Source: a virus
DNA length: 28,791 nucleotides
Reading direction: 5' to 3' (one strand)
Virus genome (UHGV): UHGV-1403449
Made by a program: the position numbers and the translations under genes. Position 1 is the first letter of the stretch. Each line of letters begins with the position of its first letter. Under the pieces are notes generated by a model, which made no database searches, was not told the DNA's origin, and saw only the letters and a program-made list of their open reading frames with translations. Shown in pieces: positions 4,045 to 26,027 of this stretch.

Positions 4045-5222
4045 TGGACCACCTCGTTAACGTCTATATTTTCCACACTCAACGTGAACTTTCCCTGAAA
4101 GCCTGGCGATAACTCAGCATCGGTGTAATCTGCCCCATTACTGCTAATTTGCAGATTGGTCAGCACAAAATTTACCCGTCCTACCCCATACCCATTCTCA
4201 TAAAATTCATTGGCATCCACAGACTCACCAATATGCATGGTGCGTGATGCAAGAGATTTTTTGAGAGTATCGATATCTATCGGTTCGCTTTGAATCTTCC
4301 GGCGGGCATTAAGCCTGATATGAAGCGGCTTATAGATGGGCCGATCAAACTGAAGTTCATGGGCTATCAGAAATGAAGTGCCGTCAGGCCGAATCAGGGT
4401 CTCGGTAAAACGTCCGGTTATGCTGCCTTTCGTTCCCGTTCCACCGCCTTTCTGTTTAACCATCACCTCCACAATTTCTGAAATCGCTCCCCCCTCAACG
4501 ACCAGCCATATTGAATTGGCCGGGATACCCGTCGTCGGATTATCAATTTTTGTGTCGTTCTCTCCGATATTCAGATCAATTACACCTGTCAGTTGAGCAA
4601 CTTTAGCGAAAACCGCCCCAGTGCTACCTGTTGCCGGGTTCTCAAGCGACCGGTTCCGGCGTTGCCTGAATTCTTCAGGCGTTTCCTCATCCCGACCGAC
4701 CACAACCGCGGAATCAGAGATAATGCTCACAATCCCTGGTTCTGGTGTGAGTTGAGTGAAGGTGTCGTTCACAAGCCCAGTAACTTTCCCAAAGTTTTGA
4801 GCAAAAAAGGTGGCTGTTGTGACGCCCGCCGGAACGGTCACGTCCTGTCGGATAGCCCAGACCTGATTTGCCTGGTCCCGTATCTTGTACCCGCTATAGA
4901 GAAGCACCGGCCTGTCTGTTGTGACTTTAAGGTCACGCTGAGACCGGGAGCCGGGGCGAAGGAAAAGCCCGTGAAGTTTGGCGATAATCTGCTGCATATC
5001 ACCAGTATTAAAATCGGGGTCCATTTGGGAATAAAGCCATTGCAGCGCGGCTTCAATATCTGCCCGAGCCTGAGCTTCGATTGCCACGCGTTGACCGTCG
5101 GGAGATTCCTGGTCTAAATCGATATCCTGACCATAAATTCCCTTATATCCGTCGCTCAGTTCCTGAAATAACTCCCGGAGAGTGCTTGTCTCAAGGCCGT
5201 TGTCGCTAAACTGTAGTGCCAT
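4041..5222 (-). CDS. Baseplate J-like protein (Mu gp47 / P2 gpJ family)
   Basis: 393 aa; position and size match baseplate J/gp47 in a Mu-like tail module; overlaps neighbours by 4 nt. Confidence 0.6.
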   Translation of the reverse strand: MALQFSDNGLETSTLRELFQELSDGYKGIYGQDIDLDQESPDGQRVAIEAQARADIEAALQWLYSQMDPDFNTGDMQQIIAKLHGLFLRPGSRSQRDLKVTTDRPVLLYSGYKIRDQANQVWAIRQDVTVPAGVTTATFFAQNFGKVTGLVNDTFTQLTPEPGIVSIISDSAVVVGRDEETPEEFRQRRNRSLENPATGSTGAVFAKVAQLTGVIDLNIGENDTKIDNPTTGIPANSIWLVVEGGAISEIVEVMVKQKGGGTGTKGSITGRFTETLIRPDGTSFLIAHELQFDRPIYKPLHIRLNARRKIQSEPIDIDTLKKSLASRTMHIGESVDANEFYENGYGVGRVNFVLTNLQISSNGADYTDAELSPGFQGKFTLSVENIDVNEVVQ

Positions 5223-5586
5223 TCTTCAACGCTCCGTTGACCGGGAAGGTGATCGTCTGCTGGTCATAGACGGTCTCAATGCTGAGTTCGATTTTTTGTG
5301 ACCGGGTGGCCTTATTGACCTCCATCGCCAGAGCGGTAATGCGCATAACCCCATCCGTCGCCAGCGTCACGCGCTCTATCTCCCGCAGAATCTCCTGCTC
5401 GGTGTTTTTCTCTGATAACAGGTAAAGCCAGTCGATGTTGTCATCCATGTTGAGAGGATTATCGTTTTTGAACGAGCGGATCCGGCATTTGGCTTTCTGC
5501 GCGATAGCAGCACCGCCAGTTATATAGTTTGCCTTCCCGCGCCCAAATCCCCAGTCGTCATTTTTATCAAGTGCTGAAACAATCAT
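5206..5586 (-). CDS. Small baseplate protein (Mu gp46-like / GPW-like)
   Basis: 126 aa ORF between the gp45-like and gp47-like genes; synteny-based. Confidence 0.45.
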   Translation of the reverse strand: MIVSALDKNDDWGFGRGKANYITGGAAIAQKAKCRIRSFKNDNPLNMDDNIDWLYLLSEKNTEQEILREIERVTLATDGVMRITALAMEVNKATRSQKIELSIETVYDQQTITFPVNGALKNGTTV

Positions 5587-6200
5587 GAGATCTCCGTGAC
5601 AATACCGTTGGTAACTGTGATTGTTTTCCCGTCATCGCTTCGAAATGAACCAGACACCCCAGACTTACCGCCTGTCTTTACCTGGGAATATTGAAGTACA
5701 TTCAGAACATCGCATTCTTCCAGAGTCGTCTTACCATCTTTCTGGGTAATATTTCCTGTGAGGTTTAAATCACCCTCGTGGTCAGAATCCCCCTTCATCA
5801 TCCTGTTCTTCTTAGGGATATTGATCGCGGTAGCCTGTGGGTTAACCCCACACAGAGCGAAGCCATCTGAATAATCGTGCATACGCATTTCAAGTGGTGA
5901 AACAAAGTCGCTACCCGCATACCAAGCGTCATAACAACGCTCAGAGATAAGGACGAGGCAATAGTCACCAGCCGCAATTGGTTCGGCGATATAACTATCA
6001 CCGCCTTGCAAAATTACCGGGGGGACTTCAATGAACTCTGGGAGTTGCTTGCTGCTCCCTTTCACAACCCGATTGATAACGGGGACGCAACTGATTGTTT
6101 TGTCATTTACAGACGTTATTTTTGCGACAACAATGGTGTGAACATCGGCCAGAGCAAATTCAACACCCAGGCCGATAGTGTCGTGAAGTTCTTCGATCAT
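5583..6200 (-). CDS. Baseplate spike / assembly protein (Mu gp45-like, gpV-like)
   Basis: 205 aa; follows the hub-like gene in Mu order; synteny-based. Confidence 0.45.
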   Translation of the reverse strand: MIEELHDTIGLGVEFALADVHTIVVAKITSVNDKTISCVPVINRVVKGSSKQLPEFIEVPPVILQGGDSYIAEPIAAGDYCLVLISERCYDAWYAGSDFVSPLEMRMHDYSDGFALCGVNPQATAINIPKKNRMMKGDSDHEGDLNLTGNITQKDGKTTLEECDVLNVLQYSQVKTGGKSGVSGSFRSDDGKTITVTNGIVTEIS

Positions 6201-19799: not shown

Positions 19800-21217
19800 T
19801 ACATGATGTCCAGTGGGCTGAGTGTTTTTCTCTGATACAAATCGCGTAGTCCCTGTGTCATTGCATCGACAACGTCATCGTTCGCGCCGACAGGGAACGT
19901 GGTAATTTCCTCGACCGTCTCAGTGATCCACGGTGCGATGTCTTTATGGGGAAGGAAAACGTTACCTGCTTCCCATACAGCGGTGATCGCATGCGCCCGG
20001 GCGACTTTGCTGCCGTCCGGTTCAACGGGAACGAGTCCTGCTACGGTGCTTTTCAGTGAATCAATAACCGCCGGGCCGTTGGCTTTATCCTCCACCAGCT
20101 TGCGCAGGCCTTTGGGGTATTCGTCGGCCATGCGTTTAACGGCTTTGAGTGTTGCGGTAAAGCTCATGCGCGCGCGCACCTGGTGAAGCAGATAAGCATT
20201 GGCGCCTTTTTTCCCCCATACCTGCCCGACAACGTAGTCGGTGCCCTCGCTGTCTTTGAAGGTCATATCCCAGCTATGGACGACAATATCGAAGTTGGTC
20301 GGCAAGTCTTTCGGGAGGTAATACTTGATCCACTCGTCTTTGAAGATTGAGCCGCCGGCCTGTTTTGGTGACTGCTGATACATCGCAGACCAGAAGTAAT
20401 CCCCGAGAATGGTTTTGGTTTCGAGCAGCTTTTCTTTCGGGTGCAGTTCAGGCACCAGCGCTTCACCCTGCTCGTTGATTGCAGGGAACGCCAGCACCTT
20501 AGCGCGCGGCGTGATTTCCACCACACGCCCGGATAAATCATCTGTCGCCCAGCGGGTCGCCATGATGATTTCGCCGCTGTTTTTCGACAGACGCGTTTTA
20601 AACGTGGAAACGTACCAGTTCCAGATAGATTTTTTGGTCGTCGGGCTGAGTGCTTCTTTGGCGTTTTTTATCGGGTCATCGATGATACCGAGATCGATTT
20701 TCTTACCTGTTAACGGGCCGCCTACGCCCGCACAGACATACGTTCCCTTATGGTTGGCTATACCGAATTCGTCAGTGTTACGCTTTACGGCCACACCATC
20801 AGCCGGCTTATTTCCCAACCAGGCACCCGGAAATATGTTGCGGTATTCCGGCGTGGACATAATGCGCTGAACATCGGCGTTCATGTCCCCGGCAAGGTCA
20901 GCGGAGTACGACAAAGCGCCCACGCGCATTTCAGGATATTTTCCGAAGAAATACGCTGGCAGGTAACGCGAAACGATATCCGATTTACCATGCTGCGGCG
21001 GCGCACCGAGAATCAGTATCGGGCGCAGCCCGTTCATCATATCCAGCAGGAACTGATCCAGAGCGTCGCAGACCGTCTGAGAGAACTTGCTGGTGATGTA
21101 TTCGGGATTAATGTACTGAATGAAGTCGTGGAGGCTTGCCCGCGCATTGCGTCGTTTGAGTAACTCGGCCGCTGCTTCCTGCTTACTTACCAGCGATAAT
21201 TGCGGCGAGCTGCTCAT
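19799..21217 (-). CDS. Terminase large subunit
   Basis: 472 aa; Walker A-like LILGAPPQHGKS near the N-terminus and acidic nuclease-type motifs in the C-terminal half; follows the small subunit gene. Confidence 0.85.
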   Translation of the reverse strand: MSSSPQLSLVSKQEAAAELLKRRNARASLHDFIQYINPEYITSKFSQTVCDALDQFLLDMMNGLRPILILGAPPQHGKSDIVSRYLPAYFFGKYPEMRVGALSYSADLAGDMNADVQRIMSTPEYRNIFPGAWLGNKPADGVAVKRNTDEFGIANHKGTYVCAGVGGPLTGKKIDLGIIDDPIKNAKEALSPTTKKSIWNWYVSTFKTRLSKNSGEIIMATRWATDDLSGRVVEITPRAKVLAFPAINEQGEALVPELHPKEKLLETKTILGDYFWSAMYQQSPKQAGGSIFKDEWIKYYLPKDLPTNFDIVVHSWDMTFKDSEGTDYVVGQVWGKKGANAYLLHQVRARMSFTATLKAVKRMADEYPKGLRKLVEDKANGPAVIDSLKSTVAGLVPVEPDGSKVARAHAITAVWEAGNVFLPHKDIAPWITETVEEITTFPVGANDDVVDAMTQGLRDLYQRKTLSPLDIM

Positions 21218-22181
21218 CAGTCAGATCCTCCGCGCTTACTGTGTGATTATGCTGTATGGGCTCACCATTCGGGCCGCTTAACTCAGTTTTGGTTTTCAGC
21301 ATGCCGAGGTGTTGTGCGACCATCTTCATAGCCTCATCCTGATTGCGGGTGATCATTTCAAGGCCAAATTTGCCCTCTTTAATCCCGGCAAAAAGGCGGC
21401 GTTCTGCGCCCTTCAAATCTCGTGTATCGTGGAAAACAGGACGGCTCAGACCAACGCCATTGCAGCGGGGGCAATCCGGGTTCGGGTCCAGTGTGCCGTC
21501 GTAGCCGTAGCCGCCCGTATCCTTAGGCTGCATGGCACCTTCCTTCCCCTTAACCTTTTCTTCTGCTTCCTCAAACTCAACTGCATCGCGCCACTGGTAG
21601 TTAAAACCGAGTCCCCAGCAGTAACGGCAACAGCCGCGGTGATGTTCAGTAAGTTGCGTAGCGTCTGCCGTCGCAATGTCCCACCACCATTTCAACACTT
21701 CGTCCTGCGTTATCTTCACTCTTCGCGAGCGTTCGTCCAGCGCGTCGCGGATTGCCTGGCTGACCTTAGCATTTCTTAGCAGGCGCGAGGCGTTAACGTA
21801 AGCCGTATTTCCTTCACCTTTATAGCCAGCTCGCTTGTATGCAGCGGTCCTGTTCAGATCGAGAAGATACTCTTCGACAAACCTGATCTGCATATCGTTA
21901 AGGCCGTAATTGCGCAGGTTGAAGGGTTGCGCACTTTCCTGTATATCGGTCTGCGCATCAGTTGAGGATTGCTCATACTGCGCAGTGGTAGGGGCTTGTT
22001 CAGTCTGCGCATTGCGCACTTTCTTCTGCGCATTTTTTTGCGCAGTTGGCTTTTTGATATAGCGCCGCGCAGATGTGTAATTCAGCCCCCGCGCTTCACA
22101 CCAGTCTTTGGGGGAAATACCGGATTTAGCATGCTCGGCGAGGAACTGGTGTTGCAGTGATCCCCAGTCCGGTTTTGCCAT
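21183..22181 (-). CDS. Terminase small subunit
   Basis: 332 aa ORF immediately upstream of and overlapping the large terminase gene; contains a terminase-small-subunit-like segment (FVEEYLLDLNRTAAYKRAGYKGEG...). Confidence 0.6.
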   Translation of the reverse strand: MAKPDWGSLQHQFLAEHAKSGISPKDWCEARGLNYTSARRYIKKPTAQKNAQKKVRNAQTEQAPTTAQYEQSSTDAQTDIQESAQPFNLRNYGLNDMQIRFVEEYLLDLNRTAAYKRAGYKGEGNTAYVNASRLLRNAKVSQAIRDALDERSRRVKITQDEVLKWWWDIATADATQLTEHHRGCCRYCWGLGFNYQWRDAVEFEEAEEKVKGKEGAMQPKDTGGYGYDGTLDPNPDCPRCNGVGLSRPVFHDTRDLKGAERRLFAGIKEGKFGLEMITRNQDEAMKMVAQHLGMLKTKTELSGPNGEPIQHNHTVSAEDLTDEQLAAIIAGK

Positions 22182-22224
22182 TTTAACCCTCAGTTTCTTG
22201 AAAACTATTTAATCAGATGTATCT

Positions 22225-22253
22225 TTGATAACGCAGTATCAACGCTCTATTAA
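22225..22253 (+). promoter_or_regulatory. Candidate sigma70 promoter for the plus-strand moron
   Basis: TTGATA (22225-22230), 17-bp spacer, TATTAA (22248-22253); AAGGA Shine-Dalgarno before the ATG at 22269. Confidence 0.4.
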
Positions 22254-22268
22254 TTCAAGGAATTTAGA

Positions 22269-22829
22269 ATGAAATACTCACAGCAAGAAAAACTACAGAT
22301 CATGATGCTCAGTGATATTCACCGAGCATTAGAAATTGAAAACTCATTTGATCCTGACCTCATTGACGAAGCAGTGAGCACGGATAACTACTGGGCTTTA
22401 TCCTGGGAATACCCAGGCCTTCAAGATGAAGAAGAGGAGACCCCCTGGGAAGTCCAGCTTTTCGTTGATACCTATGATATGTATGACATTCTCCAATACA
22501 CATACGAACGATTCAGTGCGGAAGACAAAGCAGAGGTTGCCAAATCTATTCGTAATTTCGATGAGAAATTATCACTCACATTCCCCGGATTTGACGGTAA
22601 CAACGAATCAAAGTTTCTTTTGATTGGTAGTTTATTGAAACGAATGGGACGGTTTAGCGGCAAAGACGATCTCACCCGGAACTCTCACATGCCCTCTGTT
22701 GCAATTTACCAACGTATGCTTGAAGTTTTCCTTCCTGCCAGAGCTAAGAATTGGGTTCACAATGTGGGCATTACTAAACATGATTTTATCGATACACTCA
22801 ACGCGAGAGTGCATCCAGAAAATCGTTAA
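22269..22829 (+). CDS. Moron gene: putative YfbU-like (UPF0304) protein
   Basis: 186 aa ORF on the opposite strand between the spanin and terS genes, with its own promoter-like and terminator-like elements; C-terminal ...YQRMLEVFLP... and overall pattern resemble E. coli YfbU as recalled from memory (unverified). Confidence 0.5.
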   Translation: MKYSQQEKLQIMMLSDIHRALEIENSFDPDLIDEAVSTDNYWALSWEYPGLQDEEEETPWEVQLFVDTYDMYDILQYTYERFSAEDKAEVAKSIRNFDEKLSLTFPGFDGNNESKFLLIGSLLKRMGRFSGKDDLTRNSHMPSVAIYQRMLEVFLPARAKNWVHNVGITKHDFIDTLNARVHPENR

Positions 22830-22834
22830 ACGTT

Positions 22835-22856
22835 AATGCCCGCAAATGCGGGCATT
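22835..22856. terminator. Hairpin at the convergent junction of the plus-strand moron and the Rz gene (possible bidirectional terminator)
   Basis: AATGCCCGC-AAAT-GCGGGCATT perfect 9-bp stem with a 4-nt loop; the flanking T-run is weak. Confidence 0.45.
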
Positions 22857-23382
22857 ATTCATCATGGCGCCTTATTACTTTGTCGTAGGTGCGCTCACAG
22901 GTATTTCCGGCGACATAACGCTCATCAGCCTCTTTTGCGAATTTTCCCGCCAGATCGTCAGCTTCGCTGAGCAACTGGGCGAGCAATATTCCGGCCTCGG
23001 CTTTTGCCTGGCTTGTTGCTGCAATTGCGGAAATTCTGCCTGTTTCACTTGTTGCGAGCTGCCGTTGTATTTCGGCGAGCTGCTGTTGCAACCCACTGCG
23101 AGCACGCTTAGCAGCGTTAGCATCAGCCTGTACTTTTGCCAGTTCTTCATCGGCTTTCTCTCGTTCTTCATCTACGGCCCGCTGGCGGCGCTGCTCTTCT
23201 GCTCTTTCGGTTACTTCACGCTGCAATGTAGTGGTCGCATCAGTAAGGTCACGTTGTGCCCACTGCAATTTCCAGGATGAGTCCGCCTCCTGATACCCGC
23301 GTGAATAACACCAGTACGCGACCGCGCATAACAAAAAAGCCACCAGCAGTATTTCTGCCAGCGGCTTCCAGTAAGCCCTCAC
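22855..23382 (-). CDS. Rz: i-spanin (Rz-like)
   Basis: N-terminal transmembrane segment (LAEILLVAFLLCAVAYW) followed by a long charged coiled-coil (EEQRRQRAVDEEREKADEELAKVQ...); probable GTG start at 23382 overlapping the endolysin stop (GTGA); ORF is open upstream to 23445. Confidence 0.75.
   Translation of the reverse strand: MRAYWKPLAEILLVAFLLCAVAYWCYSRGYQEADSSWKLQWAQRDLTDATTTLQREVTERAEEQRRQRAVDEEREKADEELAKVQADANAAKRARSGLQQQLAEIQRQLATSETGRISAIAATSQAKAEAGILLAQLLSEADDLAGKFAKEADERYVAGNTCERTYDKVIRRHDE
22875..23150 (-). CDS. Rz1: o-spanin (Rz1-like lipoprotein) embedded in another frame within Rz
   Basis: ORF entirely inside the Rz coding region in a different frame; signal peptide with lipobox (LLSVLAVGC), Pro-rich mature part; probable start at the second Met (MKNWQKY...). 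Confidence 0.7.
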   Translation of the reverse strand: MKNWQKYRLMLTLLSVLAVGCNSSSPKYNGSSQQVKQAEFPQLQQQARQKPRPEYCSPSCSAKLTIWRENSQKRLMSVMSPEIPVSAPTTK

Positions 23383-23921
23383 TGGTCTATCCCCCAGCAC
23401 GTTAACGCGCTTTCCTGGTCTCGTCGCTCTACCTGACCATAGCACCCATTTTTCTGGCCTTTGGTCAGACGACAGTCGCGGCCACCATCTTTAATCCACC
23501 AGCGAATAGCTTCACATGCGCCTTTACGGTCGCCAGCATTAATTCGCTTATAGAACGTAGACGGGAAACATTTCCCGGGGCCGATGTTATAGGGGCAGAA
23601 AGATGCGATCCCGGCTTTCTGTGGTTCGGTCAGTGGTACTTTGATATTTCGGTCAACCCACGCCAGCGCCTTGTCGCGTTCAATGGCATTCACCTGGGCA
23701 CATTTCTCAGCTGACAACTTCATACCCTGAACTACCGGCTTGCCATCAACCATCGTGGCGCCACGGCAAATCGTCCAGAGCCCACCGCCGTCTCGATACG
23801 CCTGCTCGCTATTACCCTCCTTCTCATCCAGAAACTGATCGAGAATAACTGGCGCGGATGCCCCGGCAAGAATCAAACCAACGACCGCTGCGCTCAGCTT
23901 ATTCCTCAGCTTTGGTGGCAT
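23379..23921 (-). CDS. SAR endolysin (phage lysozyme, R21-like)
   Basis: N-terminus MPPKLRNKLSAAVVGLILAGASAPVIL is a Gly/Ala-rich signal-anchor-release segment; followed by a lysozyme catalytic region (DEKEGNS...GGLWTICRG). Confidence 0.85.
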   Translation of the reverse strand: MPPKLRNKLSAAVVGLILAGASAPVILDQFLDEKEGNSEQAYRDGGGLWTICRGATMVDGKPVVQGMKLSAEKCAQVNAIERDKALAWVDRNIKVPLTEPQKAGIASFCPYNIGPGKCFPSTFYKRINAGDRKGACEAIRWWIKDGGRDCRLTKGQKNGCYGQVERRDQESALTCWGIDQ

Positions 23922-24177
23922 ACCCATTGCGCCGATCCTCCCGTTCTTTCCAGCGGAAATACCAGTTCACTGCACAGGTGATTACCGTACATGCGATACC
24001 GACAATAATTGCCCAGTCGCTCAGGCTTAACCCTGCAATTCTGTCGGCCAACATCCAGGACACCTCTTTTGCTGTTTTAGCTGTTTCGGCATATGCCTTC
24101 GCTGATACACCGCAGCCGGTCAGCGTGGTTCCTGTTCCATATGAAAGTCTGCTGTAAATGGTGCTCATTCTGGTCAT
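23899..24177 (-). CDS. Class II holin (pinholin, S21-like) with dual-start motif
   Basis: Probable start MTRMSTIY (Met-Thr-Arg-Met dual start giving antiholin/holin); two hydrophobic segments and a charged C-terminus (YFRWKEREDRRN) resembling phage 21 S; ORF is open to 24234. Confidence 0.7.
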   Translation of the reverse strand: MTRMSTIYSRLSYGTGTTLTGCGVSAKAYAETAKTAKEVSWMLADRIAGLSLSDWAIIVGIACTVITCAVNWYFRWKEREDRRNGYATKAEE

Positions 24178-24456
24178 AGCCTCACCTCCGATTTTTCGGA
24201 TGGCGCTGTGTGTGATGATAAGGTCAGGCTTCACGGGCTGGATTTATCAACAAAGCACGTAGTAATTGATTCCCGTGAGCCTGAAATGAAAAAGGCCACC
24301 AGTTGGCAGCCTCGAAGTGAGTTAACTTGTTTATATAGGTGGAGCGAGAGGTCCTTCTAAAACTTCCGCTTCACCGTTATGGCAAATGTCATCACCTATG
24401 GTCAGACGCCTGTGGTTGTGATGGCCGTTTAAGATTGAGCCAGCACTGTAGTTGCA

Positions 24457-25248
24457 TCAATTACCCAATGGCTTATGTAGTTTAAATGGGTTAAGTGATT
24501 CTTCATTTTTCAGGCTTATCTTTAAATTCACAGCAATCAGTGAATGATCGTCAGTTGGTCCAGCGCGCTGTATCCGCTTAAAAAGATTGGTTGAAAAGTT
24601 AGTAGCATTCTTCAATGTATTGGGAGAAAAACGCGGGCGGCGTTCCCAGAAGTGATGGGCTCCATCGGACATCAGAAAAAGAGAAACAACACCGTCATGG
24701 TCCATCAAATCTGACAGGGGTAACGAAATATGCTGAAATTTTATTGGCAGGACTTTAGAAATAGCTGCAGTAAGCATGTTCTTTCCTGGTAAGTCTTCCA
24801 ATTCCCTTTTCGTATATAACCCATCGTCGAGCAACTCTTGATGCTGTGAGTGATCTTTCGTTAGTAGTTTTAATTTGTTATCAATTTTTACATACACCCG
24901 AGTATCGCCTACATGGATTACATTAAGTAACTCACCATGTACAACACAGTAGGATAATGTTGTTGCGGCCTTGCGCTTCTCTGAATCGAACTGAGATAGT
25001 TCAGATATTTTGTCTTTTGCACCACTAAGTATCGCATCAGGATCAGAACTGGCTTTCAGTTTATGAGTTGCGACATAGTCTACTGCAGCTTGCGCTGCTT
25101 CTTTAGCACCAGCATAAGACCCGACACCATCAGCAATAGCAAAAATGAAGCCATCATCACATTGTTGCGGGAGTAGTAACGCATCTTGGTTTTCACGACC
25201 ATGATCTTTGGGGCATGAAAATGCACCACAGCTCAACAACTCAATCAT
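24457..25248 (-). CDS. PP2C-family Ser/Thr protein phosphatase
   Basis: 263 aa; metal-binding motifs of PP2C phosphatases (IADGVGS, GDTRVY, MSDGAHHF); start overlaps the kinase stop by 4 nt (ATGA). Confidence 0.75.
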   Translation of the reverse strand: MIELLSCGAFSCPKDHGRENQDALLLPQQCDDGFIFAIADGVGSYAGAKEAAQAAVDYVATHKLKASSDPDAILSGAKDKISELSQFDSEKRKAATTLSYCVVHGELLNVIHVGDTRVYVKIDNKLKLLTKDHSQHQELLDDGLYTKRELEDLPGKNMLTAAISKVLPIKFQHISLPLSDLMDHDGVVSLFLMSDGAHHFWERRPRFSPNTLKNATNFSTNLFKRIQRAGPTDDHSLIAVNLKISLKNEESLNPFKLHKPLGN

Positions 25249-26027
25249 TTGCCTCTCCTTGCTGCAACAATATCATCAAGAATGTCTATCATCTCAGTGA
25301 CAGAATCGTACCTTGAACGAGGCGTAAATGCCGCTGATTTATCGATTAATGTCGTTATACCGTCAATATGAGATAGATTCATTTCACTAGTAATAACACC
25401 TAGCGCGTAAATATCTGATTTCTGTGTATATACTCCGCGTTTAGCCTCGTCAGACATGTACTTAGCAGTGCCAATACCCATTTTTTTGTTTTGAAGTACA
25501 CCTGACAAAAAATCAGATTGGGCTTTCGAATCCATACTTTTGATTAGGCCGAAATCGGAAATTTTGTAACAGCCTCCTTCAAACTTGAGGATATTCTCAG
25601 GTTTCAGATCCCTGTGAAGCAACCCAGCGTCATGGATATACTTAACGCCTTCAAACACCATCTTCAGGGCTAACAGCTTTTCATCATCAGAAAGAACGCC
25701 CGCTTTTAGTTCGCTTCTTAGGTCTGTTTCTGCCAACTCCATCACAAACCAAGGGTTTTCTATGCTTAAATGATGTATGCAAATTCTTACAACATGATCA
25801 TGATTGCACTTGGCTTGGTAGTCGACTTCACGCTTAAACCGACGCTTCCAGTCATCTACACTAAAATATTCATTTAATAACGCAGGATTAACTGAAAGAA
25901 CTTTCCTTGCATACTCACCACAAAGATGGCTATCGGTGTTATATACCTCAACCTTTTCCACACGACCAAAAGCACCAAAACCTAGATCTCTCAATGGTTT
26001 TATAAGGTAATTACCCCTGGGTTCCAT
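25245..26027 (-). CDS. Hanks-type (eukaryotic-like) Ser/Thr protein kinase, catalytic domain only
   Basis: 260 aa; Gly-rich loop LGFGAFGRV, catalytic loop HRDLKPENIL, DFG motif (ISDFGL), activation-segment TAKYMSDE and subdomain IX DIYALGV. Confidence 0.85.
   Translation of the reverse strand: MEPRGNYLIKPLRDLGFGAFGRVEKVEVYNTDSHLCGEYARKVLSVNPALLNEYFSVDDWKRRFKREVDYQAKCNHDHVVRICIHHLSIENPWFVMELAETDLRSELKAGVLSDDEKLLALKMVFEGVKYIHDAGLLHRDLKPENILKFEGGCYKISDFGLIKSMDSKAQSDFLSGVLQNKKMGIGTAKYMSDEAKRGVYTQKSDIYALGVITSEMNLSHIDGITTLIDKSAAFTPRSRYDSVTEMIDILDDIVAARRGK

Follow-up and report, generated by a model that had tools for sequence, protein, structure and literature searches.

Kamadhenu, a protein of 180 residues with PF03887 (YfbU) as its only domain, is encoded by a single gene on a Lactococcus plasmid and causes abortive infection against each of the Skunavirus and Ceduovirus phages that were tried (PMC11381338); the phages that escape it were all changed at G22 of a Sak-like single-strand annealing protein (SSAP) (PMC12184496). 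Morons, on the other side, have been described by a foreign GC content, their own expression signals and a patchy distribution (PMC3594210). Here we describe a YfbU-like gene in the virus genome UHGV-1403449, a stretch of 28,791 nucleotides (nt) that we call the window, where it forms a cassette antisense within the late operon of a lambdoid prophage, between the Rz-type spanin gene and terS. Already known were the RefSeq name “YfbU family protein” for exactly this protein, its grouping in PHROG and the classic moron slot. The literature that was searched gives no function for phage-borne YfbU-like proteins of Gram-negative bacteria, and none of the 29 papers in it that mention YfbU deals with prophages.

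Our analysis establishes that the gene is real and under selection, which family and fold its product belongs to, that the cassette interrupts the base composition of its surroundings, and that both slot and hairpin are conserved. As the most likely function we propose a lysogen-expressed, single-protein exclusion or abortive-infection factor, with a probability of roughly 0.45; expression in lysogens, the anti-phage phenotype, its trigger and the effector activity are the parts of this proposal that we infer.

Family, fold and conservation of the protein

The sole domain recognised in the 186-residue protein is PF03887, matched with 46.5 bits against a gathering cut-off of 25 (E 5.5e-12, residues 1-158 on positions 1-150 of the 166 in the profile). 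This profile search confirms the resemblance to the YfbU/UPF0304 family that a preliminary description of the sequence had suggested. The match to PHROG 6084 is full-length (E 6.9e-75, residues 1-182 of 182). An AlphaFold2 model built on a 42-sequence alignment is all-helical (mean pLDDT 89, pTM 0.83) and shows the predicted two-domain YfbU fold; the protein has neither signal peptide nor lipobox, and a soluble, helical form is predicted for it. With profile, fold and core motif in agreement, membership of the YfbU family is near certain, as is the architecture of the locus.

The motif comprises FPGFDGNNE (residues 105-113), NSH (138-140) and YxRM (147-150). Its conservation was read from 101 aligned sequences, among them E. 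coli YfbU and members from plasmids, with fetched relatives of the window protein dominating the set. In this alignment Phe-105 and Gly-107 are invariant, Phe-108, Asp-109 and Asn-138 are conserved at 99%, Tyr-147 and Met-150 at 85-95%, and Asn-111, Asn-112, Ser-139 and His-140 at no less than 92%. The last four residues are retained in the plasmid copies of Acinetobacter and Psychrobacter and partly in those of Pseudomonas and Enterococcus, while E. coli YfbU carries Ala, Thr, Ala and Gln at the corresponding positions. This pattern places the window protein in a mobile-element-associated clade with an additional conserved polar cluster.

The preliminary description had spoken of a prophage-borne copy of a host protein family, and as a copy of the host gene this overstates the relationship. 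Identity to E. coli YfbU (a query sequence confirmed by a 100% tblastn match to annotated yfbU) is about 21%, phmmer against the PDB sequences 1wpb and 4lr3 gives an E of only ~0.5, and the NCBIfam equivalog NF003936 / PRK05445 is matched with 35 bits against a cut-off of 90. The protein is thus a distant member of the mobile-element clade. A Foldseek search of the viral structures in BFVD returned a single unnamed match of 171 residues (E 5e-3).

The open reading frame (ORF) is a real gene under purifying selection, with a median dN/dS of 0.088 according to the Nei-Gojobori method (42 distinct coding sequences, 51 pairs with dS 0.05-1.5). Its full-length homologues, 47 proteins of about 185 residues, are spread across Enterobacterales, and the precomputed tables record PF03887 in every one of them (47/47). 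A search of IMG/VR returned 80 prophage loci, and NCBI lists the exact protein, from 417 contigs, under the name “MULTISPECIES: YfbU family protein [Enterobacteriaceae]”; the 90% cluster to which it belongs spans Salmonella, Citrobacter and E. coli. Of 5426 complete E. coli genomes only 2 have identical DNA, and in these the RefSeq annotation reads terS / YfbU family protein / DUF2514; E. coli VE-F5 and NADC1036 carry such identical DNA. At the DNA level, a megablast of the locus gave no carrier in the phage collection, and at the protein level only four records matched. On a wider scale, a profile search of 1.84 billion representatives gave 2959 relatives with E ≤ 1e-3 and 323 with E ≤ 1e-30; nearly all have a single domain and a length of 175-190 residues.

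The cassette between the spanin and terminase genes

The late operon of the prophage runs on the minus strand, with Rz as the last gene of the lysis cassette and terS as the first packaging gene; further upstream of Rz follow lysozyme, holin, a PP2C phosphatase, a Ser/Thr kinase, the antiterminator Q and NinG. The YfbU-like gene lies between Rz and terS on the opposite strand, convergent with the former and divergent from the latter, as had been described for an antisense ORF of 186 residues (Table 1). Across positions 22200-22799 the GC content is 0.40-0.43, compared to 0.50-0.57 in terS and 0.53-0.55 in the Rz/lysozyme region. Intergenic flanks of 87 nt and 25 nt leave no space for a partner gene. 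A toxin-antitoxin pair was considered and rejected for this reason and because the subfamily has no conserved co-oriented neighbour. Scans for tRNAs and Rfam families over the whole window gave no matches.

When relatives with 45% identity or more are reduced to 45 non-redundant contexts, 27 of these show the gene antisense to the genes on both sides. The neighbours themselves change: the left one is terS, terL or an HNH endonuclease, drawn from several PHROG and Pfam families, and the right one an Rz-like spanin (three PHROG families or more, among them 312, 13 and 214), an endolysin of one of several families or a holin. Loci that share a YfbU-like gene of more than 94% identity have the window’s own terS, terL and portal in only a few cases. 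Even a 28%-identical protein of the induced E. coli phage vB_EcoS-689R5 is encoded at the same place and in the same orientation, between Rz and HNH/terS. More distant relatives occur at other accessory sites, after a tail tube gene or after an ORF of ~205 residues that we only guess to be a Q-type antiterminator; the gene is also found beside a gtr glycosyltransferase and on plasmids.

The slot can also be occupied by other genes. In the E. coli Nissle 1917 prophage, which has closely related lysis genes, it contains several hypothetical genes, one of them antisense, and in strain 2020S05-013-5 an SDH Clp-fold protease and a Fur-regulated protein; a survey of the slot in related prophages, which the preliminary description had proposed, thus did reveal different cargo. 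Similarity to the lysozyme region is found in 530 genomes, only 2 of which have the YfbU-like gene. In GC break, patchy presence and mosaic flanks the cassette agrees with the published description of a moron. That it was called an autonomous unit at a module boundary is supported by the GC dip, the antisense contexts, the slot kept beside unrelated gene families and the alternative cargo.

Three observations concern individual loci of this survey. The antisense gene in the gap between Rz and terminase of the Nissle 1917 prophage (L160, 2907-3521, plus strand) encodes a hypothetical protein of 204 residues with no Pfam or PADLOC match. In seven loci a gtr-type glycosyltransferase stands on the left in place of terS; in the Pantoea/Kosakonia-type lineage (L002, L115, L117, L128, L132 and L134, ~4440-5920, minus strand) this is a protein of 484 residues that matches PHROG 1579 with E down to 4e-235, and because it replaces terS there, two accessory genes stand side by side near the lysis genes. 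Finally, an upstream plus-strand ORF of 178 residues in L089-L093, proposed by a crude gene caller, is probably spurious, the same DNA being the conserved start of a minus-strand terS-like gene.

Two promoter-like elements precede the gene, and comparative data favour TTGAAA-N16-TATCTT as the candidate that is most likely the better one. The predicted transcription start at ~22232 would give a leader of ~37 nt that includes the Shine-Dalgarno (SD) sequence. All 19 of the fetched loci whose protein is 76% identical or more have the element at an unchanged distance of 71 nt upstream of the ATG, and in a lineage of 77% identity (L094/L096) all 12 hexamer positions are kept while 7 of the 16 spacer bases have changed. 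In relatives of greater divergence the upstream region is AT-rich and unrelated, with plausible hexamers and an SD sequence of the AAGGAG type; an AAGGA/AAGGAG-like motif stands at the same place in the majority of diverged relatives.

The promoter named in the preliminary description, TTGATA-N17-TATTAA, is present exactly as written, and the pattern TTGATA-17 nt-TATTAA-AAGGA-ATG occurs once in the window and never in shuffles. It is nevertheless the less likely of the two, and we reject it as the primary promoter. The consensus promoter scan did not call the TATTAA element, whose -10 hexamer lacks the conserved final T, and in the L094/L096 lineage the hexamers have become TTTCTA and TATCAA. 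Transcription starts 6-8 nt past a -10 hexamer, here at ~22259-22262, and because this start falls inside or after AAGGA, promoter and ribosome-binding site would be mutually awkward.

A GC-rich hairpin fills the 25-nt gap between the convergent genes, its 3′ arm overlapping the stop codon of Rz, which ends at 22855. Its folding energy is -17.4 kcal/mol (z -3.2 against dinucleotide shuffles), and the fold on the minus strand is equally stable. The perfect 9-bp stem that had been reported is real and extends to 10 bp with a closing U-A pair, but it begins 4-5 nt past the TAA stop and not 6. Of 34 distinct regions downstream of the gene in relatives, each taken over 50 nt from the stop, 22 fold into a hairpin with z < -2; a clear U-tract is missing in most, and many different stem sequences are used, therefore selection appears to act on the structure and not on the sequence. 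The hairpin may be a terminator, and it could just as well lend stability to the two convergent messages at their 3′ ends.

Table 1. Positions of the YfbU-like gene, its putative signals and the surrounding genes in the window; the last three lines refer to loci of other genomes and their own numbering
Feature	Position	Strand	Remarks
terS, left flank, divergent from the cassette	21183..22181	-	Pfam Terminase_2, E 7.4e-28; RefSeq annotation in L001
Preferred promoter-like element, TTGAAA-N16-TATCTT	22198..22225	+	Candidate; consensus scan
Promoter-like element of the preliminary description, TTGATA-N17-TATTAA	22225..22253	+	Pattern search; hexamers 22225-22230 and 22248-22253
Shine-Dalgarno sequence AAGGA	22257..22261	+	7 nt before ATG; read from the sequence
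YfbU-like ORF	22269..22829	+	186 residues, ATG start, TAA stop; YfbU family, PF03887
GC-rich hairpin	22834..22857	both	10-bp stem, loop AAAU; terminator-like
Rz-type spanin gene, right flank, convergent	22855..23382	-	Pfam DUF2514, E 1.2e-28; RefSeq annotation in L001
Lysozyme	23379-23927	-	Upstream of Rz on the minus strand
Holin	23899-24234	-	Upstream of Rz on the minus strand
PP2C phosphatase	24457..25248	-	PP2C_2 match
Ser/Thr kinase	25245..26027	-	Pfam Pkinase, E 2.8e-32; PADLOC mad6, E 1.8e-36, PD-T4-6, E 3.8e-31, and Stk2
ApeA after YfbU-like gene, L017	6625-8445	+	Beta-proteobacterial genome
ApeA after YfbU-like gene, L020	6553-8370	+	Beta-proteobacterial genome
ApeA after YfbU-like gene, L035	6574-8397	+	Beta-proteobacterial genome

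A proposed role in phage exclusion and its alternatives

According to our proposal, the stretch 22198-22857 would be a moron, a self-contained transcription unit acquired horizontally and inserted antisense in the late operon at the spanin/terS boundary, and its product, a predicted cytoplasmic, all-helical two-domain protein, belongs to a YfbU clade of phages and plasmids that is marked by GFDGNNE...NSH...YxRM. In the lysogen, transcription would proceed from the cassette’s own sigma-70 promoter, most likely TTGAAA-N16-TATCTT, and the hairpin would end the transcript or stabilise the RNA at its 3′ end. During lytic growth, Q-antiterminated late transcription would cross the gene in antisense and dampen it; as is usual for lambdoid antitermination, Q-modified polymerase is expected to pass through the hairpin. 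The protein would act alone, by abortive infection or superinfection exclusion in a Kamadhenu-like manner, and the recombination or replication machinery of an incoming phage (SSAP-type proteins) would serve as the trigger for arrest or death of the cell.

Of the lysogenic-conversion or defence candidate suggested earlier, the defence half is now backed by the literature, through the YfbU-domain abortive-infection protein Kamadhenu (PMC11381338). Gene neighbourhoods point the same way, relatives of the gene being found beside known defence genes in several places. In Paraburkholderia, Methylophilus and Hylemonella, ApeA, whose usual catalogue entry is that of a single-gene system, is encoded 0-63 nt downstream and on the same strand of a 37-40% identical YfbU-like gene (PADLOC E 1e-89 to 3.5e-97). 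On an 8-kb plasmid of A. lwoffii the YfbU gene adjoins AbiD, and matches to AbiEi/AbiEii, mad2, bSEFIR and PDC occur among 150 neighbours of distant relatives. Small plasmids also carry the family gene: a 3.4-kb Pseudomonas plasmid has it alongside just two others, and a 5.4-kb Psychrobacter plasmid alongside five. ApeA has been described as an antiviral protein with a HEPN domain (bioRxiv 10.64898/2026.01.26.701840).

A number of points weigh against this proposal. Most neighbours of the distant relatives are ordinary housekeeping genes, and for this reason the association with defence genes is modest. The likeness to Kamadhenu consists of Pfam family, size, single-gene nature and mobile carriage. 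PHROG 6084 is annotated as “unknown function”, and the PADLOC models of 2023 gave no match to the protein, a negative that is uninformative since this library is older than Kamadhenu (2024). Promoter-like sites in the region number 2 compared to 1.9 in shuffles, which is no enrichment and leaves the elements at consensus level; because the count does not exceed that of shuffles, a promoter cannot be claimed from this sequence alone. The window hairpin has no U-tract and was not called an intrinsic terminator by the scan, so of the terminator claimed earlier there remains a stable hairpin that recurs in relatives. The “death gene” phenotype of chromosomal YfbU after DNA damage comes from one study and has no biochemical mechanism (PMC2646832).

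Could the protein instead serve the lysogen by acting on its host? Lysogenic conversion of host physiology would mean that it feeds or tunes a stress or DNA-damage death pathway of the host, as reported for YfbU downstream of MazF, and as a result lysogens could survive SOS-type stress to a different degree, or cells with damage be driven into death or induction. The moron architecture, which implies lysogen expression, would suit such a role, and so would the occupation of the slot in lambda by bor, a host-physiology gene. The window protein and YfbU moreover have the fold and the GFD / N / YxRM core in common, and cells that have lost chromosomal yfbU are spared the mazEF-dependent death that follows DNA damage (PMC2646832). 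We nonetheless regard this explanation as unlikely, given the identity of only ~21%, the failed equivalog cut-off and the absence of Asn-111, Asn-112, Ser-139 and His-140 from E. coli YfbU; the only tested member from a mobile element has an anti-phage phenotype (PMC11381338), and the defence-gene neighbours point elsewhere.

The difference in the polar motif bears on counter-defence as well. A phage homologue might mimic or poison the oligomeric host YfbU, or a defence protein of the YfbU type, and so block a death or abortive response. YfbU crystallises as a large assembly (16 chains in 1wpb; “large complex”, PMC11381338) in which a divergent homologue could be incorporated, and annotated copies of chromosomal yfbU are present in all enterobacterial hosts. 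However, the polar motif, absent from the host protein, is under strong purifying selection, members of this clade that are carried by plasmids have no lytic cycle in need of protection, and a gene antisense to the late operon and outside the early region is poorly placed for lytic expression, which makes this option improbable. Least credible of all is that the gene is no cargo but an accessory by which the phage itself lyses or packages, for instance through regulation at the spanin/terminase junction. The position between spanin and terS is indeed notably constant across lineages down to 28% identity, but the strand is opposite to that of every late gene, most prophages with closely related lysis genes are without the gene (2 of 530 carry it), and it is also found after the tail tube gene, beside the gtr glycosyltransferase and on plasmids. 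An exclusion or abortive-infection factor expressed in the lysogen therefore remains the function that we prefer.

In a broader and more tentative form, the proposal can be extended beyond the window. It is conceivable that YfbU-fold proteins of the GFDGNNE/NSH clade constitute a family of immunity proteins, widespread on prophages and plasmids of Gram-negative bacteria and so far missing from catalogues, which would sense phages by the recombination (SSAP) machinery of the invader, either alone or beside varied effectors, and that the spanin/terS junction of lambdoid prophages is a defence slot dedicated to them. Candidate partners would be the HEPN RNase ApeA (three beta-proteobacterial loci), a membrane protein of ~166 residues (nine gamma- and beta-proteobacterial loci) and a partner of ~170 residues (more than 250 Enterococcus plasmids).

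The two smaller ORFs were observed as follows. A conserved ORF of ~166 residues, with an N-terminal hydrophobic helix, stands 1-18 nt ahead of the YfbU-like relatives of 33-40% identity from Alteromonas, Marinomonas, Microbulbifer, Psychrobacter and an Alcaligenaceae bacterium (L004, L006, L007, L008, L014, L015, L022, L023 and L027; ~5480-5990, mostly plus strand). This ORF has no Pfam or PADLOC match, and together with the YfbU-like gene it looks like a two-gene operon. In PLSDB about 257-270 Enterococcus plasmids have a YfbU-family gene. On two of them (L165 4001-5044 and L166 4001-5038) an ORF of ~170 residues follows 0-6 nt after that gene; it has no Pfam or PADLOC match and is labelled “(4Fe-4S)-binding protein” in one record.

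If the proposed role in defence is correct, UPF0304, which has stood in databases as “function unknown” for twenty years, would gain a role in Enterobacterales, and hundreds of prophages of Salmonella, Citrobacter and E. coli would carry an exclusion gene of the Kamadhenu type, with a bearing on competition between prophages and on the host range available to phage therapy. The polar motif (Asp-109, Asn-111, Asn-112, Glu-113, Asn-138, Ser-139 and His-140) offers a target of mutagenesis for the biochemistry of the YfbU fold, and the variable partners, ApeA and the membrane protein, a route to asking whether a YfbU-like protein senses or executes. Should defence prove to be the wrong reading, the locus remains a clean, well-delimited moron at the classic bor position.

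Further cargo of the window and comparison with known systems

Two further features of the window deserve mention. Eight of its 14 copies of TGCGCA lie within 134 bp (21911-22044) in the 5′ third of the minus-strand gene terS. The count over the whole window is not above that of shuffles, and it is the clustering that stands out; read on the coding strand, the copies translate into Ala-Gln repeats. A pac site or an array of TerS-binding repeats could explain the cluster. The genes for kinase and phosphatase (24457-26027) make up a second block of low GC content (0.39-0.43), between Q/pR′ and holin, and in the otherwise 99.8% identical prophage of E. coli VE-F5 a DNA methyltransferase replaces this block. 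This pair of genes is a candidate for a defence moron based on a kinase and runs in the direction of the late operon, and the prophage may thus possess a second defence candidate in its PD-T4-6-like kinase.

Of the systems described so far, Kamadhenu (pUCCL624_130; BioProject PRJNA1086404) resembles the YfbU-like gene in being a single gene of ~180 residues on a mobile element, with YfbU/PF03887 as the only domain and defence genes co-located. The window gene has this architecture, encoding 186 residues with PF03887 alone and no obligatory partner, and its neighbours are on the opposite strand and of varying families. The difference lies in the carrier, a Gram-positive plasmid in one case and a Gram-negative prophage in the other. 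A tblastn search of PLSDB with the window protein, E. coli YfbU and a plasmid-borne YfbU of E. faecium as queries had no Lactococcus among the matches listed, and a protein search from the Enterococcus homologue gave only enterococcal and metagenomic matches.

PHROG 6084 has already grouped the phage-borne copies as a family, without functional annotation. Chromosomal YfbU of E. coli (UPF0304; PDB-codes: 1wpb and 4lr3) is shorter, at 164 residues, and does not have the C-terminal ~25 residues of the window protein; it is also a housekeeping gene, whereas the window gene is prophage cargo of foreign GC content. A parallel in position is bor of lambda, which lies at the equivalent place downstream of Rz, on the strand opposite to the late operon. 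The two genes have no homology, bor encoding an outer-membrane lipoprotein and the window gene a protein predicted to be soluble and helical. With bor and with morons in general the cassette nevertheless shares its general design, that of an independent unit of deviant GC content with promoter-like and terminator-like elements, located just downstream of the spanin gene (PMC3594210).

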